The notes under the pieces were generated by a model that saw only the letters and a program-made list of their open reading frames with translations, did no database searches and had not been told where the DNA came from. A stretch of 64,000 bases of DNA from the NCBI GenBank assembly GCA_042577045.1, contig JBHPEK010000001.1, positions 15,173 to 79,172 on the forward strand, in the 5' to 3' direction. Positions 8,873 to 63,044 of this stretch are shown here, in pieces. Source of the DNA: Patescibacteria group bacterium (GTDB lineage Bacteria; Patescibacteriota; Minisyncoccia; JAHISW01; Tagabacteraceae). The position numbers were made by a program, and so were the translations under genes. Numbering within the stretch: position 1 is the first letter of the stretch; every line of letters begins with the position of its first letter.

Positions 8873-9871
8873 TTATTCCAAGCTTGGTTGGAATAGATTA
8901 TTTAGTTTTACTTTATTTTGCTTCACAGCAACTATTTCATTTCCTTCAAAATAAACCTTGAGAGCCAAACCCTCCATGGTTTCTTCCGAAAAATTTTGAT
9001 CAAAAATAAAGTTCCCCAAACTATATGCGATCAAACCCCCATTATATGCCTCCACTTCCTGAATAACATGCGGGTGGTGACCAGCAACTACCTTCGCGCC
9101 AGCATCAATGGCCAAACGTGCTAATTCTTTCTGGCGGTCGTTAGAACTTTCTTCATACTCTTCACCGAAATGAATTGAAACTATCAAAATATCTACTTGC
9201 CGAGATGCATTTTTTATAATATTTTCAAAATTTTTATCTACTAGCGTAATGCCCGATTTGTTTTCCTTAACCGCAAACCAACCAGGGCCAACATCACTAA
9301 AACCCAAAAAACCAACTCGTACACCATCTCTTTCCACAACTTTCAAAAGAGCATCTTTTTTATTCACCCCACCACCAACAGGCCAAATATCATCATTTTT
9401 TAATCTAAAGATATTTTCTTCAAAAGCTTCGCGCCCCCAATCACCAGCATGGTTGTTGGCTACAGATAAAACATCAAAACCGGCATCAATCAGCGCCCTG
9501 AGGGCGTCTGGCTTGAAACGAAACGAATATAAATTCCCCTGATCTTTCCCAGAAACAGAAACAGGTCCCTCTAAATTGGCGAAGGAAATGTCAGCATTTT
9601 TGATAAAACCAGCCTCTTTGAAAACAGACGAAAAATCTCCATCGCTATATTTGTAAACAGAATTTTCCACATCCCTACTCATCATAATATCCCCCACCAA
9701 AAGAATTTCTAAATTGTTAAGATTGGAAAGAGAGGCCGTATTTAAATTATTAAAATAAATGAAAGAGGGTGCTTGAGAAAATTTATAAACACTTCCTGAA
9801 AAATAAAAAATAGCCAGAGGCATAAGAAACCCAATAATTAATGCCGAAAATATCCAAACTATATTTTTCAT
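8873..9871 (-). CDS. CapA-family (PGA_cap metallophosphoesterase-like) protein
   Basis: GDIMMSR, FANLEGP, ANNHAGDWG and HHPH motifs. Confidence 0.75.
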   Translation of the reverse strand: MKNIVWIFSALIIGFLMPLAIFYFSGSVYKFSQAPSFIYFNNLNTASLSNLNNLEILLVGDIMMSRDVENSVYKYSDGDFSSVFKEAGFIKNADISFANLEGPVSVSGKDQGNLYSFRFKPDALRALIDAGFDVLSVANNHAGDWGREAFEENIFRLKNDDIWPVGGGVNKKDALLKVVERDGVRVGFLGFSDVGPGWFAVKENKSGITLVDKNFENIIKNASRQVDILIVSIHFGEEYEESSNDRQKELARLAIDAGAKVVAGHHPHVIQEVEAYNGGLIAYSLGNFIFDQNFSEETMEGLALKVYFEGNEIVAVKQNKVKLNNLFQPSLE

Positions 9872-13059: not shown

Positions 13060-13070
13060 CATATGTTTTT

Positions 13071-13592: not shown

Positions 13593-13740
13593 TATTCCTC
13601 CCTCGGCCGTAGCCCGTCCTATGGGCGAGGCCCTCTTCAAAGTTATTTTCAAATATCAACTTGTAAGTAGATTGCCAGTTTCAAGTGATTTTGTCAACCA
13701 CAATTGAGTTGTCTCGATAATAAACATCGAGACTTGTTTA

Positions 13741-13767
13741 ATCCATCGACATCCGATGTCGATGGAT
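13741..13767. repeat. TCSGA-centred element, class A, perfect 27 nt
   Basis: atccatcgacatc-c-gatgtcgatggat, 12 nt downstream of the RAYT-1 stop. Confidence 0.9.
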
Positions 13768-13779
13768 CGATAAAAGCTA

Positions 13780-14493
13780 CTAATCTAAAACGATATCTCT
13801 TATCTTTTCTAAATCAATTTCAGACCACTCTCTCAAAAACTTCTCGTAGTCTTTCTTTCCCCTAAACTGATCTGTGATTATTTCTGTTCCGGATAAAATT
13901 AAATCTTCAAAATCGTCTTGTAGATAACTTTTCAAACTAGACCATGGGTATTTAATAAGTTCTTTCTTTTTTAAATTCCAACTTTTTAAATTCCCCCCTC
14001 TCCAGTCTTTGCTGTCAATAAAATCTAATGGGTTAAGATGGATATACAAAGAAAGATGAAGAAGATAATTATTTGAATCAATATGTTTTGCTTTAAAATT
14101 ACTTTCAAAAAGAGAACCTTTCCGTTCTTGTTTGGTGTTTATATATTTTGCAATTGAAATATTACTCTTACGAAGAAAAGTACTTATTCCACCCTCCGTT
14201 AATTCTTTTACCAAAAGGTGATAGTGATTCGGCATAATTGAATAAGCAACGACATCAACAAGTTTATCACCTCTCCATGCTATATCTACTGCTTTTCTTA
14301 AGCTTACATTTTTGTAATTTCTTAAATAATCAAACGCCTTACTTGATTCTGTTGAATTTGCCAACAAAAAACATTGAGTAAGTTTATTTGCATTCTCATA
14401 GTTCTCAAATTCCGGAATATTTAATATTGTTCTGCTGTAAACGTGATAATATTCTCCTGAAACAAATTGGTCTTTTCTTATCATAATATTCAT
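13780..14493 (-). CDS. HUH/Y1 tyrosine transposase, IS200/REP-associated (RAYT-like), copy 1
   Basis: MPNHYHLLV (HUH) and LYIHLNP (catalytic Tyr) about 60 aa apart. The longer ORF to 14607 only translates the upstream hairpin. Confidence 0.8.
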   Translation of the reverse strand: MNIMIRKDQFVSGEYYHVYSRTILNIPEFENYENANKLTQCFLLANSTESSKAFDYLRNYKNVSLRKAVDIAWRGDKLVDVVAYSIMPNHYHLLVKELTEGGISTFLRKSNISIAKYINTKQERKGSLFESNFKAKHIDSNNYLLHLSLYIHLNPLDFIDSKDWRGGNLKSWNLKKKELIKYPWSSLKSYLQDDFEDLILSGTEIITDQFRGKKDYEKFLREWSEIDLEKIRDIVLD

Positions 14494-14503
14494 AAGTCTA
14501 TCA

Positions 14504-14526
14504 CCATCGACATCGGAAGTCGATGG
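14504..14526. repeat. TCSGA-centred element, class A with a hybrid inner arm
   Basis: ccatcgacaTCGGAagtcgatgg; exact reverse complement of 15046-15068. Confidence 0.9.
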
Positions 14527-14621
14527 ATAAAGCTTGACTTGTTTAACGACTCGTGATAGAAATTGGTGGAATGAGTTTTTGACAATAAAATATAAAATGT
14601 AGAACAAGGAAAGGAGGCAAA

Positions 14622-19326: not shown

Positions 19327-20403
19327 CTAATAATCCAATGTTTCGGTTATGTGGTATAACCCATCGTAGTTTCTTCCTGCTCCCCAAAGTTTATAATATA
19401 AACGAGCCATATTAGTTTCCGACAGATTCAATTTTTTTCTCTCCTGATTTATCGCTTCCAGAAGTTTTCCAATAGCCAAAACAGTTGCCAGACGTATTTG
19501 AATCTCCAAAGGAAAATTTTCCTCTATCTCCTCTCCCATCGAAATTTTATTCCGCAGAAATGGAGAATATTTAAAAATCTCTAAAATATATAAAATTTTC
19601 GGTAAAACACAATCGGCAACGACACTTAGACTTTCAACGTCTTTGATTTGTGGTAATGTGTCGCTACTTTGCGCCCTGCCATAATATTCTAGAAGAAAAA
19701 GAAGTGCTTTTTTGTGAAATGGAAGCCAATTGTCATATCTGGTACGATCTAGACTACGTTTATCATAATATGCTCCTGGAAAATCTTCCACCAGACGCTC
19801 ACAAATGCCATTGCCACCATCAAAACACCTATAATTTGCCTCTTTAAAAAGATTCGCAAATTGACCATTATATTTAGAAATTAAAACCCTGGCAATGTTT
19901 TTCCAAATTTGCATTCGTTTTTCAAGCAAAGGTAAATTCGAATCAACATTAAAAATTTCTCTCATTTGACTAATTTTAATGCCGTGCAAAAAATAAGGAT
20001 CTAATAGTGGAATTTTCTTTTCTATAATGGCTCTGGTGACACAGGCAGACACTCCGAAAGCACCTGTCCATTTTTTATCTTTCCAATTCGTATAAAATTT
20101 TATACTTCCTATTCCTGGCTCTTTGTGATATGCATTTATTGCCGTAACAATTCCCAACCATTGAATAAAATCGTCGTCATCGTGTGGATACTGCACTGGC
20201 TCTCTCCACTCAGGAATTTCAAAATCTTCCTCTGCCCATTGCTTGGCACGCTCCTCAAGTTTCTGCTTTTTTATTTTGACATGTCCGACAGCAACAAATT
20301 CATCGTCTTCATAAAAGCTTCTTGGGCTCGGCAACTGGTAAACACCAGTTCTGTTTTTGCGATTTTCAAAATAGCCAACAACCTTCTCATACCACGGATT
20401 CAT
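19327..20403 (-). CDS. queuosine-salvage family protein (DUF2419/Qng1-like)
   Basis: Recalled family pattern: FHKKALLFL, VADCVLPKIL..., EIQIRLATVLA, C-terminal YHITETLDY. Confidence 0.6.
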   Translation of the reverse strand: MNPWYEKVVGYFENRKNRTGVYQLPSPRSFYEDDEFVAVGHVKIKKQKLEERAKQWAEEDFEIPEWREPVQYPHDDDDFIQWLGIVTAINAYHKEPGIGSIKFYTNWKDKKWTGAFGVSACVTRAIIEKKIPLLDPYFLHGIKISQMREIFNVDSNLPLLEKRMQIWKNIARVLISKYNGQFANLFKEANYRCFDGGNGICERLVEDFPGAYYDKRSLDRTRYDNWLPFHKKALLFLLEYYGRAQSSDTLPQIKDVESLSVVADCVLPKILYILEIFKYSPFLRNKISMGEEIEENFPLEIQIRLATVLAIGKLLEAINQERKKLNLSETNMARLYYKLWGAGRNYDGLYHITETLDY

Positions 20404-24678: not shown

Positions 24679-24827
24679 AATAATTAAGACGAAATTAATT
24701 GATATTTAAAGTGTTCGCAAAGAGAGGCTCCGAGTAATATTGCACCTAACGTTTCGGTATATCTGATATTTTGCAGAACGTAGATTCTACAAAGGACCGT
24801 CCTTTGTAACAATTAGATGGTACTCGC

Positions 24828-25523
24828 TCACCCAACAACTGCCTCTACTTCTGCTACTTTATTTTTTATCTCTAATATTTTCGAAAGTTCGGGAAACAAT
24901 GTGCCATTTTGCAATCCCATAAGTAAGTCGTCTAAGCAAGAAAATTCGGGATAGGGGTGTAGGTCATAAATTTTTCCTTCAAATTCCACGCCATTCAAAA
25001 TAATTGGCAACTCATCAAGCACATATGAAGATAATTTTTCTAACTTACTTAAAGCTAATCCACTTGCTCTTGAGCCTAAATTCTCTTGAACTATCTTTAT
25101 TATAAAATCATGGAATTGATTATTTTGTTTAAATTCATTAAGAAAAATTTTGATTTTGTCTTTATAATATTGAGACTTTTTTACGTCATCCCACCTGCCA
25201 ATTTTAATAAAAGATTGTTTTTCCTTTGGCAAGCTACGCACTATTTCTTCTATAGACTTTTCAATTTCCATGCCCTTTCTTAATGTAACTTGTAATGCTC
25301 TTTCAGAACTATAACCATCAAAAACTTCGTAGTTTATCGCGTGGACTGTATCTGCTATCAGAACCAAAACATCATCTTTGGTATTTTCTAAAGCCCAGCG
25401 AAGATATGCTCTTATGTTTTCTTTAGAAAAATATTTATTCCCCAAACTTATGCCCACAAAAATATTAAACTTTTTTGATTTAATATCTTGTTCCGTACAA
25501 TTCAAGAAAGACTTGATTATCAT
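24828..25523 (-). CDS. tRNA-dependent cyclodipeptide synthase (CDPS, AlbC family)
   Basis: VGISLGNKYFSKENIRAYLRWA matches recalled AlbC IGISAGNSYFSQKNTVMLLQWA (catalytic Ser). YVLDELP matches YVLAEAP (Tyr/Glu). About 230 aa, the family size. Confidence 0.75.
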   Translation of the reverse strand: MIIKSFLNCTEQDIKSKKFNIFVGISLGNKYFSKENIRAYLRWALENTKDDVLVLIADTVHAINYEVFDGYSSERALQVTLRKGMEIEKSIEEIVRSLPKEKQSFIKIGRWDDVKKSQYYKDKIKIFLNEFKQNNQFHDFIIKIVQENLGSRASGLALSKLEKLSSYVLDELPIILNGVEFEGKIYDLHPYPEFSCLDDLLMGLQNGTLFPELSKILEIKNKVAEVEAVVG

Positions 25524-26276: not shown

Positions 26277-26461
26277 ATGTATTTAGATTAAATTATTTCC
26301 TTACCAAGATAATATCACAAACCATAGTCGACCTTAAACAAATTGCCAAAAAAATCTTAAAAAAATAATAAAGAAATTTCTGGCTATTTCATATAGTTCG
26401 TTATTATACATACTATTACTTATACTGTATCACTTTGTAATTGGTGATACAATGTAATACA

Positions 26462-28498
26462 ATGTCAACCATGAAATATCACATCATCACATACGGCTGT
26501 GGAGCCAATCATGCCGATTCAGAAAGGATCGAAGCGAAGCTTCACGCACTTGGACACACAAAAGCCGCCAACAAGAAGGTGGCTAATTTGATAGTGATTA
26601 ATTCTTGCTCGGTGCGCAAGTCAGCTATGGATCGTCTTTATGCACAAATAAACAAACTAAAAACCAAGAAAAAGAAAGTAATTTTGGCAGGATGCATCTT
26701 AGAAAAAGACCTAAAAAATTTGAAAGACAAGGTAAGTGAAGTTTGGCACCCAGATGAGTACTTCGACTTAATGCCAATTTATGCAGATGAAGTTGGTGTG
26801 TCTGTCCCCATTATGACGGGGTGCAACAACTTTTGCACATATTGTGCTGTTCCTTACACCCGTGGACGAGAAAAATCTCGCCCAGCAAAAGATATTGTCG
26901 ATGAAATAAAGAAACTTGTGGCAAGCCCCGCCGGGCGGGATAAAAAAGAAATTTGGCTATTGGGTCAAAACGTAAACAGTTACCGATCTGGTAAAACAAA
27001 CTTTCCAAAACTTTTACAGAAAATAGATAAAATACCCGGCAAGTTTTGGGTTCGTTTTATTTCCCCACACCCAAAAGACTTCTCGATTGAATTAATAAAA
27101 ACAATTAAAAAATGTGAAAAAATTACTGAATACATAAACGTGCCTGTTCAGTCTGGAGACAATGAAATACTAAAAAGAATGAATAGAAACTACACGCGCG
27201 AACACTATATAAAACTTGTAAACAGAATTAGAAAAGAAATACCAGACGCATCTATATCCACAGATACCATTGTTGGCTTCCCTGGGGAAACAAAAAAACA
27301 ATTCTTGAATACTAAAGATTTATACAAAAAATTAAAATTTGATATGGCATTTCTAGCTGAATACTCTCCTCGTCCGGGGACTTTTTCAGCAATGATGATG
27401 AAAGACAACGTAAGCCATACCGAAAAAGAAAAACGAAAAAAAGAACTAAATGACATTTTAACCAAAACTGCACTAGAGAATAATAAAAAATATATTGGAA
27501 AAACAGTAGAAGTTTTAAATGGACGAACTCGCACCAATAAGCTGGTTACCCTACACGATACCGAGTATCGTGTAGGGCCAAGTGAATTCTTGAATGTAAA
27601 AATTACAGGAGCTGAATCTTGGAGACTAAAAGGGGAAATTGTTAAAAAAATAGTAGTTGTGCTTGGGCCTACTGCTTCTGGAAAAAGTGGTTTAGCTGTT
27701 GAGATAGCTCAAAAATTCCCTTCTGAGATTATCTCTGCAGATTCTAGACAAATTTACAAAGGAATGAATATCGGTAGTGGAAAAATAACAAAAAAGGAAA
27801 TGAAAGGAATAAAACATCATCTTCTTAACATAGTTAGCCCAAGAAAAATATATTCGGCAGGAGAATTCAAAAAAGAAGCTCAAAAATGTATCGAAGGAAT
27901 ATTGAAACAAGACAAAACGCCTATCATTTGTGGTGGAACAGGTTTTTATATCAACTCGCTTTTGGGTGGAAACATTGCCGAAGTAGAACCAGATTGGAAC
28001 TTGAGAAAAAAACTTGAGGAAAAAACTACAAAACAACTTTTTGGCCAACTGAAAAAACTAAAACCCCAAAGAGCAAAAAATATTGATTCCCAAAACAAAC
28101 GCCGACTAATACGGGCTATTGAAATAGCCAAATCTGCATCGAAGTCGGACTTCGACGCAATATCGAAGTCCGACTTCGATGTGTTGTATTTAGGAATTAA
28201 AAAAGACGGAGAAAAGCTAAAAAAAATAATTGATAAGAGGGTGGACGAAATGATTGAAGAAGGATTAGAAAAGGAAGTAAAAAAACTTGTTAAAAAATAT
28301 GGGTGGACGAAGACTTTAAAAAATACAATTGGATACCAAGAATGGAAAGAAGACAATTCAGAAGAAAAGATAAAGGCCCATTCACACCAATACGCAAAAA
28401 GACAAATAACTTGGTTTAAGAAATATGCACCGAAAACACACTGGCTTGGCAACAAAAAAGAAGCATTAAAATTAGTAAGAAACTTTTTAAAGAATTAA
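26462..28498 (+). CDS. miaB-miaA: fused MiaB (radical SAM methylthiotransferase) - MiaA (tRNA dimethylallyltransferase)
   Basis: UPF0004 N-domain, CNNFCTYC radical SAM cluster and TRAM domain, followed by a P-loop GPTASGKS and ADSRQIYKGMNIGS. Start is at 26462 or 26471. Confidence 0.85.
   Translation: MSTMKYHIITYGCGANHADSERIEAKLHALGHTKAANKKVANLIVINSCSVRKSAMDRLYAQINKLKTKKKKVILAGCILEKDLKNLKDKVSEVWHPDEYFDLMPIYADEVGVSVPIMTGCNNFCTYCAVPYTRGREKSRPAKDIVDEIKKLVASPAGRDKKEIWLLGQNVNSYRSGKTNFPKLLQKIDKIPGKFWVRFISPHPKDFSIELIKTIKKCEKITEYINVPVQSGDNEILKRMNRNYTREHYIKLVNRIRKEIPDASISTDTIVGFPGETKKQFLNTKDLYKKLKFDMAFLAEYSPRPGTFSAMMMKDNVSHTEKEKRKKELNDILTKTALENNKKYIGKTVEVLNGRTRTNKLVTLHDTEYRVGPSEFLNVKITGAESWRLKGEIVKKIVVVLGPTASGKSGLAVEIAQKFPSEIISADSRQIYKGMNIGSGKITKKEMKGIKHHLLNIVSPRKIYSAGEFKKEAQKCIEGILKQDKTPIICGGTGFYINSLLGGNIAEVEPDWNLRKKLEEKTTKQLFGQLKKLKPQRAKNIDSQNKRRLIRAIEIAKSASKSDFDAISKSDFDVLYLGIKKDGEKLKKIIDKRVDEMIEEGLEKEVKKLVKKYGWTKTLKNTIGYQEWKEDNSEEKIKAHSHQYAKRQITWFKKYAPKTHWLGNKKEALKLVRNFLKN
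28136..28158. repeat. TCSGA-centred element, class D, inside the miaA part (in frame)
   Basis: gcatcgaagtc-g-gacttcgacgc. Confidence 0.8.
28160..28182. repeat. TCSGA-centred element, class D, inverted partner, in frame
   Basis: atatcgaagtc-c-gacttcgatgt; with 28136-28158 it encodes SKSDFDAISKSDFD. Confidence 0.8.
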
Positions 28499-35372: not shown

Positions 35373-35421
35373 ATCTGTGTACTGAGAGAGATGTTGTCTC
35401 TCTCAGGAGCTTCCAACAGAT
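35373..35421. repeat. composite palindrome: class B outer arms with nested CTGAGAGAGA inner arms
   Basis: atctgtgtactgagagagatgttgtctctctcaggagcttccaacagat; 6 nt downstream of the RAYT-2 stop. Confidence 0.8.
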
Positions 35422-35427
35422 ACCAAA

Positions 35428-36081
35428 TTATTCTATTATGAACTCTTTTATGTCTTCGAACCTGCTCTTACTTTTGGTTTTGCAGCTTTTTAGAAATTCT
35501 TCATATTCGTCGTAATTTTTTAAAGGAGTCCATTTGTATTCTTCAAGAAATTTTTTTGCCTTACGCCAATCTTTTAAGCCCTCCTCTTTCCACCTAGGCT
35601 CAAAAAGATCTAGCGGGTTTAGATAAATATATTGTTTTAAATAATTTAAATATTCATCTTTATCTATTAGAACTGCCTTGAACTTTCCCTGAAACAAAAC
35701 TCCACTTCTCTCATATTTTTGATTAAAATAATTAGTGTAGCCAGTTCCCAGTTTTTGCATAAAACTGGAAATTCCGCCATCTTCCAATTGTTCAAGAATT
35801 AAATGAAAATGATTAGGCATTAAACAAGAGCCATAAAATTTAACTACGGACTCTCTGTCCTCTTTTTTTACTATGTGGGAAGTCGGACTTCCCACAGATA
35901 CCGCTCCTTCGCTAACACTTATACGACGAAACAGATTAATAGAAGAGTTCTTATCATTAAAATCTCTTAAGCTAAAAAGGAAGCGATGGTAGTCTTTGTC
36001 GTCCATAAAAACCTTACGTTTGTCTGTCCCACGGTTAAAAACGTGATAAAAATGGTTATTTGCAAATTGAGGTTTTTTCAT
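35428..36081 (-). CDS. HUH/Y1 tyrosine transposase, IS200/RAYT-like, copy 2
   Basis: MPNHFHLIL (HUH), QYIYLNP (Tyr). Start is at 36081 (MKKPQF...) or 36108. Confidence 0.8.
   Translation of the reverse strand: MKKPQFANNHFYHVFNRGTDKRKVFMDDKDYHRFLFSLRDFNDKNSSINLFRRISVSEGAVSVGSPTSHIVKKEDRESVVKFYGSCLMPNHFHLILEQLEDGGISSFMQKLGTGYTNYFNQKYERSGVLFQGKFKAVLIDKDEYLNYLKQYIYLNPLDLFEPRWKEEGLKDWRKAKKFLEEYKWTPLKNYDEYEEFLKSCKTKSKSRFEDIKEFIIE
35874..35896. repeat. class B element inside the RAYT-2 CDS (in frame, encodes VGSPTSH)
   Basis: tgtgggaagtc-g-gacttcccaca followed by gatacc. Confidence 0.85.
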
Positions 36082-36107
36082 TACTTTTATTATATATACA
36101 TATTTCA

Positions 36108-36134
36108 TCTGTGGGAAGTCCGACTTCCCACAGA
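36108..36134. repeat. TCSGA-centred element, class B, perfect 27 nt
   Basis: tctgtgggaagtc-c-gacttcccacaga. Confidence 0.9.
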
Positions 36135-36156: not shown

Positions 36157-36579
36157 TTATTTTTGGGTGTTTTTGTTGTGTGATTTCTTTTGATAGTTTT
36201 TGATAGTTTCTTTGAATGCTTGATCGGCTAAGACAGAGCAGTGGATTTTAATTTCCGGCAGACCACCAAGTTCATTCATAATGTCTTTTGGTGTAATTTT
36301 TAAAGCTTCGTCTATACTTTTTCCAATCACCATTTCTGAAAAAACAGACGTAGAAGCAATAGCCGAAGCGCACCCAAATGTACGCCACTTGAAATCTTTG
36401 ATTTTGTCTCCCTCAAACTTAATCCACATCTTCATCACATCACCACACGCTGGCGAACCCACCTCACCTTCTGCATCAAATTCTCCCGATTTGGGGTCCA
36501 CCAAAAGAACATTTTGTGGATTAAAAAAATGTTTTTTTACTGTTTCGCTATATTGCCAATCTAGGCCATCCTTTATCAT
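36157..36579 (-). CDS. nifU: NifU/IscU-type Fe-S cluster scaffold
   Basis: GSPACGDVM, FGCASAIASTS, HCSVLA motifs. Confidence 0.85.
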   Translation of the reverse strand: MIKDGLDWQYSETVKKHFFNPQNVLLVDPKSGEFDAEGEVGSPACGDVMKMWIKFEGDKIKDFKWRTFGCASAIASTSVFSEMVIGKSIDEALKITPKDIMNELGGLPEIKIHCSVLADQAFKETIKNYQKKSHNKNTQK

Positions 36580-36580
36580 A

Positions 36581-37801
36581 TTATTTTATGGAAGAAATAT
36601 TTTTTAATTTGTTAATAATATCTGGAAGAACTTTCAAAACATAATCTATGTCTTCTTTTGTGTTTTCCTTTCCCAAGCTGAACCGAACCGAACCATGCAC
36701 GTGCTCATGGCATCGGCCAATCGCTTTTATAACGTGTGAGGGTTCTAAACTATCCGAACTACACGCCGAACCGGTTGAGGAGGCTATTCCTTTGGCATCA
36801 AGGTATAAAATAATAGATTCGCCCTCTACTCCATGAAAAGAAATATTTATATTATTTGGAAGTCGGGCGTCTAAAGATCCGTTAATTTTGGAGTCGGGAA
36901 AAGTTTTTGAAAGATTTTCTATAAAATAATTACGCAATTCAATAAGACGAGCAGATTCTTTTTCTCTTTCCTTTTGGGCAACCTCTAGCGCCTCAGCAAA
37001 GCCAACAATGGCAGGAATATTTTCTGTTCCTGGACGAAGACCAGATTCTTGCCCACCACCGTAAAGTATTGGCTCAATTTTTAATCCTCTCTTTTTGTAA
37101 AGGCACCCAACTCCTTTGGGCCCATAAATTTTAGAACCGTTTAAAGACATTAGATCTATTCCCAACTTGGCAACATTTAAATCTAGAAAGGACGGGGTTT
37201 GAATAGCGTCGGTATGAAAATATGGTGTTTCAACTCCGTGTTCTTTTCGATGAGCACGAATTATTTTAGCAATCCTAGAGATTGGTTGAATGGTTCCTAT
37301 TTCATTATTGGCATACATAATAGAAACCAAGATCGTCTCTTTTCGAAGTTCTTTTTTTAATTCTTCTAAATCCACCAGTCCATCTTTATCTACATCTAAA
37401 TAACTAACTTCGAATCCCTCTTTCTCAAGTTTCTCGCAAGCATGAAGGACCGCGTGATGTTCTATACTGGAAGTAATGATATGTGGGAAGTTGGACTTCG
37501 CACGCTTGTTGTGGGAAGTCCTGAGAGAGATCTGATCTCTCTCAGTGCCCACAGAACCAAAAATGGCCAGATTGTCACTCTCAGTACCACTAGAAGTAAA
37601 AATAATTTCGTCTGGACGTGCACTCAAAATTTCGGACACTTTATGTCGAGCGTCAGAGATGGCTTTTTTGGCAACTCGACCCTCCTCATAAATTGAAGAG
37701 GCATTTCCAAAATCCACAGACCAAAAAGGCTCCATTGCCTTTTTAACAGCTGGATCTAGTTGGGTAGTTGCTGCATGATCTAAATATATTCTTTTCATCA
37801 T
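36581..37801 (-). CDS. nifS: cysteine desulfurase (NifS/IscS) carrying an in-frame repeat insertion
   Basis: GTESDN, PLP Lys region SLNGSKIYGPKG, catalytic SSTGSACSS. Confidence 0.9.
   Translation of the reverse strand: MMKRIYLDHAATTQLDPAVKKAMEPFWSVDFGNASSIYEEGRVAKKAISDARHKVSEILSARPDEIIFTSSGTESDNLAIFGSVGTERDQISLRTSHNKRAKSNFPHIITSSIEHHAVLHACEKLEKEGFEVSYLDVDKDGLVDLEELKKELRKETILVSIMYANNEIGTIQPISRIAKIIRAHRKEHGVETPYFHTDAIQTPSFLDLNVAKLGIDLMSLNGSKIYGPKGVGCLYKKRGLKIEPILYGGGQESGLRPGTENIPAIVGFAEALEVAQKEREKESARLIELRNYFIENLSKTFPDSKINGSLDARLPNNINISFHGVEGESIILYLDAKGIASSTGSACSSDSLEPSHVIKAIGRCHEHVHGSVRFSLGKENTKEDIDYVLKVLPDIINKLKNISSIK
37482..37504. repeat. degenerate class B element inside nifS
   Basis: tgtgggaagtTggacttcGcacG. 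Confidence 0.7.
37510..37553. repeat. composite class B/inner-arm element inside nifS
   Basis: tgtgggaagtcctgagagagatctgatctctctcagtgcccaca. Confidence 0.85.
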
Positions 37802-41512: not shown

Positions 41513-41539
41513 TCTGTGGGAAGTCCGACTTCCCACAGA
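41513..41539. repeat. TCSGA-centred element, class B, perfect
   Basis: tctgtgggaagtc-c-gacttcccacaga followed by tacaaaaaa. Confidence 0.9.
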
Positions 41540-46883: not shown

Positions 46884-46931
46884 ATCTGTGGGAAGTCCTG
46901 AGAGAGATAGTATCTCTCTCAGGACACAGAT
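46884..46931. repeat. composite class B/inner-arm palindrome
   Basis: atctgtgggaagtcctgagagagatagtatctctctcaggacacagat followed by accaaaaaa. Confidence 0.85.
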
Positions 46932-46944
46932 ACCAAAAAACACC

Positions 46945-46984
46945 CTCCCACTATGAAAACCTTACTTGGTTTTCATGGTGGGAG
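46945..46984. repeat. 17-bp-stem hairpin of another arm type
   Basis: ctcccactatgaaaacc-ttactt-ggttttcatggtgggag (1 mismatch). Confidence 0.75.
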
Positions 46985-47008
46985 TCGAAATATGCCTTAG
47001 TTTCAACT

Positions 47009-47031
47009 ACGTCGACGTCCGACGTCGACGT
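47009..47031. repeat. TCSGA-centred element, class C, perfect
   Basis: acgtcgacgtc-c-gacgtcgacgt, preceded by tttcaact. Confidence 0.9.
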
Positions 47032-47036
47032 TTATA

Positions 47037-47056
47037 CGACATCGGATGTCGATGGA
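47037..47056. repeat. class A element with truncated left arm
   Basis: cgacaTCGGAtgtcgatgga. Confidence 0.7.
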
Positions 47057-47071
47057 TTTAAAAACAAAAAA

Positions 47072-47095
47072 CCCCTGCTTCGCTAAAAACAGGGG
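47072..47095 (-). terminator. terminator of 47141-47755
   Basis: cccctg...cagggg flanked by A/T runs. Confidence 0.6.
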
Positions 47096-60377: not shown

Positions 60378-60488
60378 ATGTATTTATCTAAACGTGGCAA
60401 AAAATTAAACAGGGCTGTTTGGATTTTCATCAGTATTTTGGCAATCATCGGAATGGTGGGTTACCTCATTGTACCACTTTTCTACTAA
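60378..60488 (+). CDS. possible 36-aa membrane peptide
   Basis: TATAAT at 60363-60368; MYLSKRGKKLNRAVWIFISILAIIGMVGYLIVPLFY. Confidence 0.35.
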   Translation: MYLSKRGKKLNRAVWIFISILAIIGMVGYLIVPLFY

Positions 60489-62311
60489 TCATTTCCTCCA
60501 CCCTGAATCATCTTCAAGAACACGTCGTGGGGAACATCTACCCGGCCGTGTTTGCTTAATTTTTTCTTCCCCTTTTTCTGCTTCTCTCGCACTTTCATTT
60601 TTCTAGTTATGTCTCCACCATATAGACCAGCGGTGACATCTTTTTTAAGAGCAGATATTTTTTGAGCAGCAATAATGCGCCCATTTGCTTTCACTTGGAT
60701 TTTAATCACAAACAGCGCTCTTGGCAAAAACCTCTTTAATTTCTCGGCTAAATTTTTTGCATCCCTTTGCATATCTTTTTTGGCAATCATTTTTGAAAAT
60801 GCTGGAATGACCTCTTCATTTAAAAGAACTTCTAAGCGAGTAAGTTCCCCCCTTCTATCTTCCATAATTTGATAACTAAAAGACGCATATCCAGACGTAG
60901 CACTTTTTAATTCTTCAAAAAAATTGTTCATCATTTCGCGTAGGGGCATTTGGGCTTTTAAAACAAATCTCTTCTGCTCACCAAATCCTTCTGTATCTCC
61001 CACCATGGCATCTCGTCTTTTTAAGACTTGCATAACTTCTCCCAACTTATCAAAAGGAGTTATAATTTTTACTTCAACCCATGGTTCGAGAATTTTATCT
61101 ATTTGAAAATGTTCAGGAAAAAGCGCTGCTGAATAAATCTCTTTTTTATTGCCATTTTTATCTTCTATTTTGTAAACCACGCTGGGAGTAGCAACCACAA
61201 CAGCAAGCTTAAACTCACGCTTTAGGCGTTCCACAATAATTTCAAGATGGAGCATTCCTAAAAAACCACAACGAAATCCACGCCCCAAAACACCACTTTC
61301 CTCTTCTTCAAAATCTAAAGAGCTGTCTGAAAGCTTCAATCTTTCTAACGACTGTTTTAAGTCCGTAAAATCGTCTTGAGACTCTGGGTATATACTAGCC
61401 CAAACAACTGGCGCGGGTTGTTTATATCCCTTTAGCGCCCCCAAGGTACTACCTTTGGAAAGAAGTGTATCTCCAACAGAGGCAACACCTGCCTCTTTAA
61501 CATTCGTTACAACATATCCAATTTCTCCTGTTTTTAGATCTGGAGTTTCTAGGGGGGTGGGGCTAAGAATGCCAATTTCCCCAACTGTAAAATTTAGACC
61601 AGCTTGATGTAAAAATACCTTATCACCTTTTTTGATTTGGCCATCTGTGCATCGTACATATAAAATAATACCTTTGTGAGGTGAATACTCGAAATCAAAA
61701 ACCAAACCCCTGAATCCACACGACACCGAGTTTCGTGTATCTACACGAAACTCGGTGTCGTGTGGGTGTGGAGGTGGGATACGAGAAATAATTTCTTTGA
61801 GCAGGGCCTCTACGCCTTCCCCTGTTTTAGCTGATACTTCTAAAATATCTTTTTCCTCGCAAGACAAAATTTCCAAAATTTCTTGTTTCGTCTCTGGGGT
61901 CTGTGCATTCGGACTATCTATCTTGTTAATAACGGGAACTATGGTTAACCCCAACTCTTTTGCCATTTCTAAGTTACTAATTGTTTGCGCTTGAACTCCT
62001 TGAGTGGCATCTACTAAAAGTACTGCCCCCTCAACAGCCTTAAGAGAACGCGACACCTCGTAAGAAAAATCTATATGTCCTGGAGTATCAATCAAATTGA
62101 GTTGATACCCCTCAAAACTCATTCGGACTGGTTGCATTTTTATGGTAATACCTCTTTCTCTCTCTAACTCCATTTGATCTAAAACTTGTTCTTTCATTTT
62201 TCTCTTCTCTATGGTCGCAGTCAATTCCAAGAACCGATCAGCCAAAGTTGACTTACCGTGGTCAATATGCGCAATAATACTAAAATTTCTAATATTGTTT
62301 TTTTCTTGCAT
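60485..62311 (-). CDS. lepA: translation elongation factor 4 (LepA) carrying an in-frame palindrome
   Basis: G-domain AHIDHGKST, DTPGH, NKID; LepA-specific C-terminus. Confidence 0.95.
   Translation of the reverse strand: MQEKNNIRNFSIIAHIDHGKSTLADRFLELTATIEKRKMKEQVLDQMELERERGITIKMQPVRMSFEGYQLNLIDTPGHIDFSYEVSRSLKAVEGAVLLVDATQGVQAQTISNLEMAKELGLTIVPVINKIDSPNAQTPETKQEILEILSCEEKDILEVSAKTGEGVEALLKEIISRIPPPHPHDTEFRVDTRNSVSCGFRGLVFDFEYSPHKGIILYVRCTDGQIKKGDKVFLHQAGLNFTVGEIGILSPTPLETPDLKTGEIGYVVTNVKEAGVASVGDTLLSKGSTLGALKGYKQPAPVVWASIYPESQDDFTDLKQSLERLKLSDSSLDFEEEESGVLGRGFRCGFLGMLHLEIIVERLKREFKLAVVVATPSVVYKIEDKNGNKKEIYSAALFPEHFQIDKILEPWVEVKIITPFDKLGEVMQVLKRRDAMVGDTEGFGEQKRFVLKAQMPLREMMNNFFEELKSATSGYASFSYQIMEDRRGELTRLEVLLNEEVIPAFSKMIAKKDMQRDAKNLAEKLKRFLPRALFVIKIQVKANGRIIAAQKISALKKDVTAGLYGGDITRKMKVREKQKKGKKKLSKHGRVDVPHDVFLKMIQGGGND
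61716..61765. repeat. perfect 22-bp-arm inverted repeat inside lepA
   Basis: ccacacgacaccgagtttcgtg-tatcta-cacgaaactcggtgtcgtgtgg. Confidence 0.9.
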
Positions 62312-63017: not shown

Positions 63018-63044
63018 TCTGTGGGAAGTCGGACTTCCCACAGA
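63018..63044. repeat. TCSGA-centred element, class B, perfect
   Basis: tctgtgggaagtc-g-gacttcccacaga followed by tac. Confidence 0.9.

Follow-up and report, generated by a model that had tools for sequence, protein, structure and literature searches.

How does the gene for a cysteine desulfurase come to contain, in frame and between two of its conserved blocks, palindromic DNA that recurs in the intergenic regions around it? The gene, of the nifS/iscS type, lies on a contig of a Patescibacteria group bacterium (Tagabacteraceae), from which one stretch of 64,000 nt with 37% G+C, here called the window, was analyzed. We propose that the insert in nifS consists of the genome's own palindromes, which resemble repetitive extragenic palindromic (REP) elements, and that these were placed in frame, moved by an enzyme related to the REP-associated tyrosine transposases (RAYTs) and retained in a tolerant loop as a passenger. 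We put the probability of this reading at about 75%. The locus comprises the following features, in window positions.

36581-37801, minus strand: nifS/iscS-type cysteine desulfurase open reading frame (ORF), 406 aa, intact, holding the inserts
37480-37504: degenerate class B element; the plus strand reads TATGTGGGAAGTTGGACTTCGCACG, and the minus strand encodes RAKSNFP
37505-37509, minus strand: spacer of 5 nt between the two nifS elements, in the codons for N-K-R
37510-37555: composite element, plus strand TGTGGGAAGTC-CTGAGAGAGATCTGATCTCTCTCAG-TGCCCACAGA; repeat families D9 and D12, inverted pair I10
37521-37545: class C hairpin, CTGAGAGAGAT-CTG-ATCTCTCTCAG, 25 nt with a perfect 12-bp stem, nested in the composite

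The insert spans positions 37480-37555 (about 75 to 76 nt) and sits in frame between GTESDNLAIFG and IITSSIEHHAV of NifS. Its basic unit, class B, is a 27-nt perfect palindrome (TCTGTGGGAAGTCSGACTTCCCACAGA) that amounts to exactly nine codons and is free of stop codons in all six frames. The element at 37480-37504 matches the reference copy of family D7 at 92% over 24 nt (22/24) and has three mismatches to the 23-nt class B core; the orthologous place in a related genome, L004, holds a perfect class B. The end of this element adjoins the codon of His107, which is unaltered, and the spacer is orthologous to the AGT-AAG spacer of the class B tandem in L004. In the composite, class B ends (TGTGGGAAGTC ... 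CCCACAGA) enclose the class C hairpin, and the minus strand encodes SVGTERDQISLRTSH. Over 54 nt, the composite shares 81% identity with the intergenic copy at 46887-46940, and the class C hairpin has further copies at 35382-35406 and 46898-46922. A preliminary description of this DNA had read two class B-type elements, one degenerate and one composite, into the intact nifS ORF at positions 37482-37553. Both do belong to dispersed palindromic families, and the coordinates were off by no more than 2 nt at either end.

On the coding (minus) strand, 75 nt of the insert read SVGTERDQISLRTSHNKRAKSNFPH in the nifS frame, and DQISLR, TSHNK, and SNFPHIITSSIEHHAVLHACEK are examples of peptides predicted to be diagnostic of its translation. 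The composite is stop-free in four of six frames in each intergenic copy, and the entire 75-nt nifS insert in only three, including the frame used. The G+C content of the insert is 52%, versus 39% for the nifS gene, and its predicted RNA fold is strong (z = -5.5). No intrinsic-terminator-like site was called inside nifS, where no T-run follows the insert hairpin, and Rfam gave no family on the insert or its surroundings. No target-site duplication is visible at the nifS junctions of the window or of the related genomes L001, L003, and L004.

The families to which the insert belongs are present well above chance. Copies of class B, whose multi-copy status was established within the window, were found by a repeat search at 35872, 36108, 41513, and 63018 (families D3 and D7). 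In total, the 64 kb contain five simple class B copies and three composites, alongside four to six copies each of class A (CTGCGTCGACGTCSGACGTCGACGCAG) and class A' (CCATCGACATCSGATGTCGATGG), which are further families with a central TCSGA loop. The three composites (in nifS, at 35373, and at 46885) share one structure, with class B ends around a 25-nt CTGAGAGAGAT-NNN-ATCTCTCTCAG hairpin. With up to one mismatch allowed, there are 17 occurrences of the decamer TGTGGGAAGT, where 3.8 would be expected, and none of 100 shuffles reached 17. CSG-centered palindromes number 25 in the window and 3.8 in shuffles. ORFs make up about 88% of the window, and about two-thirds of the members of these families are intergenic. 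In class B, a GTGG (TCTGTGGGAAG...) lies inside the fully symmetric stem, and class A starts with a CGTC-containing arm. Three intergenic members stand apart from the nifS region.

41513-41539: perfect class B, found by repeat search
63018-63044: perfect class B between convergent ORFs, beside a terminator-like hairpin
46885-46931: composite (family D12), opening a cluster that continues with a class A at 47005-47036 and a class A' at 47033-47055

At 46885-47075, a single intergenic region brings together three palindrome classes (composite B/C, A, and A'), after which comes a terminator-like hairpin; the cluster resembles the mosaic REP clusters of enterobacteria (bacterial interspersed mosaic elements).

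Does the insert spare the enzyme? The NifS ORF covers the Pfam family Aminotran_5 completely (1-371/371, E = 2.3e-71). Its best NCBIfam matches are NifS, with 490 bits (cutoff, 531), and IscS, with 393 bits (cutoff, 643); since both equivalog scores lie below the cutoffs, we assign the protein at the family level only, as a NifS/IscS-type class I cysteine desulfurase. The hallmarks of that class are present: the full class-V aminotransferase fold, the pyridoxal phosphate (PLP) lysine, the active-site cysteine loop, and the PLP-stacking histidine. In an alignment of 41 orthologs (A1), the PLP lysine K224 (S223-K224 in SKIYGPKG), the catalytic C347 (SACSS), H115/H116, and other motif residues are invariant, and His107 is nearly so. 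The earlier claim that reading frame and catalytic motifs are kept therefore holds, with full Aminotran_5 coverage and K224, C347, and H107 in invariant or nearly invariant columns. The AlphaFold2 model has a mean predicted local distance difference test score (pLDDT) of 87.8, and Foldseek aligns it with human NFS1 and E. coli IscS at TM scores of 0.87 to 0.90. In the model, helix 72-95 continues into the insert, residues 97-102 have a pLDDT below 50, and strand 107-111 comes next; per 10-residue block, the pLDDT is 79 for residues 81-90, 53 for 91-100, and 76 for 101-110. The conserved residues and the predicted fold of NifS are intact despite the insert.

The comparison with other NifS proteins shows what the insert adds. 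We defined the linker as the segment bounded by the G of (L/F)G on one side and the conserved His on the other and could parse it in 108 of the 120 best database matches. Between GTESDNLAIFG and HIITS it measures 24 aa in the window and 10 aa in solved IscS/NifS structures, which align with a 14-residue gap exactly at the insert. Counted from NLAI to HII, the distance is 26 aa in the window and 12 aa in the solved homologues, hence a net gain of 14 aa; the lengths given in the preliminary description, about 13 aa for E. coli and 26 aa here, agree with these values. The lengthened linker joins a helix to the strand that starts at His107, and this connection is the most length-variable internal site of NifS across Patescibacteria. 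Linkers of 8 to 10 aa occur in 38 of the 108 orthologs and linkers of 11 to 14 aa in 4; the other 66 have at least 15 aa, and 43 of these at least 20 aa. The linker DNA of two short-linker orthologs, L016 and L017, lacks the hairpin (fold z = 0.3 and -1.9). Repeat-free orthologs thus have linkers of 8 to 10 aa and no hairpin; they do not have a linker of the same length as that in the window, the result that would have spoken against an insertion.

Class B also occurs at the same nifS site and in the same frame (SVGSPTSH) in three related genomes, L004, L003, and L001, whose NifS proteins are 67 to 71% identical at the amino acid level. Four more distant Patescibacteria orthologs, L005, L011, L012, and L013, have unrelated, G+C-enriched palindromic DNA at the same linker, with DNA-fold z values of -4.3 to -9.2.

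L004: two perfect class B copies in tandem, encoding SVGSPTSH-SK-CGKSDFP-H
L003: one class B copy, with its right arm duplicated
L001: one 27-nt class B copy, in which a paired change (TGTTGG...CCAACA) preserves the palindrome
L005: nested palindrome of about 100 nt at the linker, repeated with 86% identity in another loop of this nifS gene
L011: a different long palindrome at the linker
L012: a class A-like element at the linker
L013: a tandem of CCCGAGGACSGTCCTCGGG at the linker

The layout in L004 matches that in the window (element, AAG-containing spacer, element, CAT-ATC), except that the first unit of the window additionally holds the class C hairpin and the second has three substitutions. 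The insert junctions vary by lineage and lie 0, 3, 3, and 4 residues after the conserved glycine. Every elongated linker that was checked as DNA (the window and seven others) proved palindromic. The two copies in L005 differ by a paired change, with CCGCG/CGCGG in one and CCCCG/CGGGG in the other. At the protein level, the linker insert peptides SRLNPxAGSDADS, LTSLRTDEEGNPTEAKF, and FTLPRxxAGSDASQDF recur, and some recurring insert peptides are also found at a second NifS site, after residue 191, sometimes at both sites of one protein. Among the class B-bearing genomes, four-fold degenerate nifS sites are only 33 to 40% identical, a sign of saturation, whereas the element copies in nifS are mutually 18 to 22/23 identical (78 to 96%), and one copy of L004 is identical in 23 of 23 positions to an intergenic copy of the window. 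Such conserved elements among saturated silent sites imply renewed hits, homogenization against the repeat pool, or selection, rather than a single neutral ancient insertion.

Which enzyme could have moved the elements? A candidate is encoded close to nifS, and a second gene of the same kind lies elsewhere in the window.

36157-36579: NifU_N gene (Pfam), the downstream neighbor of nifS
35428-36108, minus strand: RAYT-2, RAYT-like transposase ORF of the Y1 (HUH) type, 226 aa; Pfam Y1_Tnp, 36.1 bits (cutoff, 23)
36108-36134: perfect class B, immediately 5' of RAYT-2 and overlapping its first ATG
35872-35898: class B inside the RAYT-2 ORF, in frame, encoding SVGSPTSH
35373-35420: composite (class B ends and class C hairpin; I3, I10), directly 3' of the RAYT-2 stop codon
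13780-14607: second RAYT-like ORF, 31% identical to RAYT-2, with class A' copies at 13738-13770 and 14504-14526

The start of RAYT-2 lies past nifU, some 470 bp downstream of the stop codon of nifS, and the ORF is flanked on both sides by class B-type repeats, the layout of a REPtron. Its only NCBIfam match is REP_Tyr_transpos (36 bits). H100 and H102 of the HUH motif and Y160-x3-N164-P165 are invariant in an alignment of RAYT-2 orthologs (A2). A phmmer search of RAYT-2 against PDB sequences gave no meaningful match, and a Foldseek search with its predicted structure returned 4er8_A as the best hit (E = 1.3e-5; rmsd, 2.8), ahead of the TnpA proteins of IS608 and ISDra2; 4ER8 shows the REP-associated tyrosine transposase of E. 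coli in complex with a REP hairpin. In the RAYT-2 model, low pLDDT values at residues 62-69 and 76-78 mark the region of the internal class B, and most of the closer RAYT-2 orthologs in the alignment retain the peptide (V)SVGxPxSH. One of these orthologs, L014 (10001-10663; 76% identical), shares a 201,829-nt contig with the nifS gene of L001 and keeps both the REP-gene-REP layout and the internal palindrome. The 5' flanking and internal copies of L014 have in common a compensatory loop variant specific to that genome, GTT-S-AAC, which suggests concerted evolution. In L003 and L001, NifU is directly followed by a gene for an HtrA-like protease, which suggests that the transposase gene was inserted beside nifSU in the lineage of the window. 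Given this arrangement, RAYT-2 is the likely cognate enzyme of class B.

Two observations concern the surroundings of the RAYT-like genes. The best sigma-70-like promoter match in the region, at 36089-36117 on the minus strand and just upstream of RAYT-2, has the right arm of the class B element as its -35 hexamer (TTCCCA) and TATAAT 17 nt downstream. More class A' copies lie near the second RAYT-like ORF, at 13069 and 15046. We considered a class A' copy "inside" ORF 13780-14607 as another in-gene element and rejected it: all homologues start downstream of the N-terminal extension in which it sits, and it is better read as 5' flanking, the annotated N terminus being probably overextended.

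We hypothesize that the REP-like hairpins are moved or copied as single-stranded DNA by the neighboring RAYT-like HUH/Y1 transposase, as the REPtron arrangement would suggest. Insertions would survive only where length, frame, stop-free reading, and position spare NifS function. A resident REP in the loop may then draw further REP insertion, tandem duplication, nesting, or gene conversion, and such an attraction would account for both the tandem and nested architecture and the elements having been kept fresh despite the saturated silent sites. The extra peptide is most likely a tolerated passenger, predicted to form a helix extension followed by a disordered loop.

Several points weigh against this reading or limit it. 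Class B does not have the one-sided GTAG tag of classical REPs and is fully symmetric. Its exact sequence is rare in public data, with two loci in species-representative genomes (L006 and L007) and three metagenome loci (L008 to L010). For the RAYT-like proteins, the NCBIfam RAYT model gives 36 to 40 bits against a cutoff of 80. A link from RAYT-2 to the nifS elements is suggested by arrangement and homology, the mobility of the elements and the activity of the enzyme are hypothetical, and the insert is presumably translated as part of NifS, for which the basis is the intact ORF. As for whether the insert is a surface loop, a question raised in the preliminary description, the model contains the helix extension and the low-pLDDT loop, while the surface position of the added peptide is what we infer from that low pLDDT and from the length variability. 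Finally, the class B bearers are not grouped in a crude neighbor-joining tree of 45 orthologs, whose deep branches are star-like, so that it cannot separate one insertion with losses from repeated insertion. Of the five public loci of exact class B, none lies inside a gene; they are intergenic or terminate a contig. The copy in L006 (4695-4717) is found exactly at the end of a 4.7-kb contig of a metagenome-assembled genome (MAG), consistent with short-read assemblies being broken by such repeats.

The insert could instead have been domesticated, as one old insertion held by selection for the peptide (for example, as a partner-binding surface) or for a hairpin in mRNA or DNA. The conserved element sequence in genomes with saturated four-fold sites would fit this, as would the strong RNA fold of the insert (z = -5.5), the conservation between genomes of other in-gene copies (inside RAYT and in MiaA), and the paired changes that keep the palindrome in L001 (TGTTGG...CCAACA) and L005 (CCGCG/CGCGG to CCCCG/CGGGG). 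However, the TGTTGG variant is a REP subfamily that also exists outside nifS, so conversion or re-insertion accounts for the paired changes equally well. Moreover, the junctions differ by lineage, the insert peptides are wholly different between lineages and absent from 38 of 108 orthologs, and the copies in the window are decaying, one being degenerate and the other interrupted. We therefore regard domestication as unlikely. Only slightly less probable, in our estimate, is that the elements were placed or renewed independently of a RAYT, by homologous recombination or gene conversion, by replication template switching at palindromes, or by another transposase. The three composites have the same asymmetric structure, as if copied from a single founder; the partial right-arm duplication in L003 is typical of slippage; and no Y1_Tnp was found among the called genes up to 10 kb from nifS in L001, L003, L016, and L017. 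REP families lacking a dedicated transposase have also been reported by Di Nocera et al. (PMC3733652). On the other hand, both RAYT-like ORFs are flanked on each side by palindromes of their own class, a layout that is kept in L014, the best structural match of RAYT-2 is a RAYT bound to its REP hairpin, and the genome of L001 also encodes a RAYT-2 ortholog.

A trivial origin is harder still to reconcile with the data. The source is a MAG contig and the class B copy of L006 lies at a contig end, so a repeat-induced chimera could in principle have put the repeat into nifS. The ORF is intact and in frame, though, and class B occupies this site in independent assemblies from other samples as well (L004, L003, and L001; in L004 with the same two-element layout), which makes an assembly artifact very improbable. 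We give even less credence to a chance resemblance, or to an ancestral linker that gave rise to the repeats. Only the short unit length speaks for either; against them stand the 22/24 match, the 54-nt match at 81%, the motif count not reached in any of 100 shuffles, and the linkers of 8 to 10 aa in repeat-free orthologs and of 10 aa in all solved structures.

How does the system compare with known ones? Short intragenic REPs, single or dimeric and encoding 20 to 30 aa, have been catalogued together with REPtrons in Proteobacteria, Opitutus, and Rickettsia (Di Nocera et al. 2013, PMC3733652). The foot of a REP hairpin usually has a GTAG/GTGG tetranucleotide (Quentin et al. 2018, PMC6006769), and CGTC-tagged REPs exist as well (PMC3733652). 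The elements described here are likewise short (20 to 40 nt), G+C-rich, dispersed, and mostly intergenic palindromes, which sometimes occur as singles or dimers in frame in known genes, where they encode about 10 to 30 aa, and a Y1/HUH transposase gene is flanked by them. They differ in their host, a member of the Patescibacteria; in class B being a symmetric 27-mer with GTGG within the stem and no one-sided tag; in RAYT-like proteins that score below the NCBIfam cutoff and have a REP copy within their own ORF; in the nesting of one hairpin in another; and in the targeting of one protein loop in many lineages by different families. The system has the palindrome families of REP/RAYT and a transposase gene flanked by them; for the tag and the NCBIfam threshold, its assignment is ambiguous.

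The preliminary description drew a parallel to the Rickettsia palindromic elements, that is, palindromic DNA in frame in housekeeping genes (Ogata et al. 2000, 2002; PMC10969869). These were first described as units of about 150 bp that encode a conserved peptide (PMC10969869). The parallel is apt for what happens, since here, too, palindromic selfish DNA is found in frame in housekeeping genes (NifS and LepA) of a reduced genome, and the host proteins are apparently functional, with an added segment in NifS that its model predicts to be compatible with the fold. The units of 27 nt, or 46 nt in the composite, and the Patescibacteria host set our elements apart by size (about 100 to 150 bp in the Rickettsia families) and host, and a candidate mobilizing enzyme is adjacent; the short intragenic REPs of REP/RAYT systems are the closer mechanistic relatives (PMC3733652). 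The nifS unit, a single 27-nt hairpin with no visible target-site duplication, is not a MITE (miniature inverted-repeat transposable element) either. MITEs are 70 to 300 bp long and have terminal inverted repeats and usually target-site duplications. The element of about 100 nt in the nifS gene of L005 is more MITE-like, and the addition of a peptide by a small nonautonomous repeat inside an ORF is common to both. Hairpin elements are also found in placozoan and algal mitochondria, and the GC clusters of yeast mitochondria (var1) are G+C-rich hairpins in A+T-rich, compact genomes that are sometimes in frame; the mobilizing machinery of these organellar elements is different or unknown. Among small nonautonomous bacterial repeats, ERIC and BOX are occasionally located inside ORFs, to which they add peptides (reviewed in PMC10969869). 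In the open-access papers searched, we found none on palindromic, REP, or RAYT elements in Patescibacteria, the candidate phyla radiation, or Parcubacteria, in line with the earlier statement that the phenomenon had not been noted for such genomes. Events of this kind have been described in Rickettsia and some other bacteria; for the present lineage the phenomenon is new.

NifS is not the only protein of the window with palindromes in its gene. In the LepA/EF4 ORF (60485-62311, minus strand), an inverted dimer of CACGACACCGAGTTTCGTG (class D) forms a 50-nt perfect palindrome at 61716-61765. This palindrome separates the G domain from domain II, is in frame, and encodes HPHDTEFRVDTRNSVSCG, with a net gain of 10 aa relative to EF4 of T. 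thermophilus. In a MiaB-MiaA fusion ORF (26441-28498, plus strand), the MiaB part contains a class D palindrome (HDTEYRVG) at 27549-27577, and the MiaA part has two tandem class A-like palindromes (KSASKSDFDAISKSDFDV) at 28135-28182. We do not count the latter as a net insertion, only as in-gene repeats: relative to solved MiaA structures, the protein is not lengthened. The fusion is also present in L001, with a similar palindrome at 19449-19475, and the RNase HII gene of that genome (8704-9354) contains a class A'-like palindrome, ACATCGACACCCGATGTCGACGC, at 9054-9076.

Some further repeats of the window are mentioned for completeness. Two pairs of direct repeats were observed, 1034-1152/1628-1746 (119 nt, 87%) and 12006-12112/13129-13235 (107 nt, 84%). 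Neighboring small ORFs without a Pfam match contain the first pair, and one of them also holds a class A palindrome (1492-1524). An ORF that matches the Pfam cyclodipeptide synthase family (CDPS; 24828-25523, minus strand; E = 2.6e-17) has a class-like palindrome just downstream (24785-24811).

It is tempting to extend our reading to the phylum. The colonization of surface loops by hairpin repeats might be general and ongoing across Patescibacteria, and the NifS linker might act throughout the phylum as a landing pad that many unrelated families hit or renew again and again; RAYT-like enzymes with their own REP in the gene could drive this process, and in-gene hairpins would perhaps be maintained at the nucleic acid level. 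We offer this extension tentatively and consider it possible but rather doubtful. The occurrence of copies in frame in NifS, LepA, and MiaB in a single window of 64 kb, together with the longer NifS loop in most relatives, suggests that the process may be common in Patescibacteria. If the phylum-wide reading is true, such repeats would be a major overlooked source of lineage-specific insertions and length variation in reduced genomes.

In summary, protein-coding palindromes have so far been treated as an oddity of Rickettsia and a few REP-rich bacteria. Our analysis adds a new lineage and a NifS loop that is a recurrent target of different families, and the contrast between conserved elements and saturated silent sites points to ongoing turnover. 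It also provides a candidate REP-RAYT pair from an uncultivated lineage. Unexplained insertions in metagenome-derived proteins may be translated repeats, which should be masked in alignments, phylogenies, and structure predictions. The system is a natural experiment on the tolerance of protein loops to insertions.

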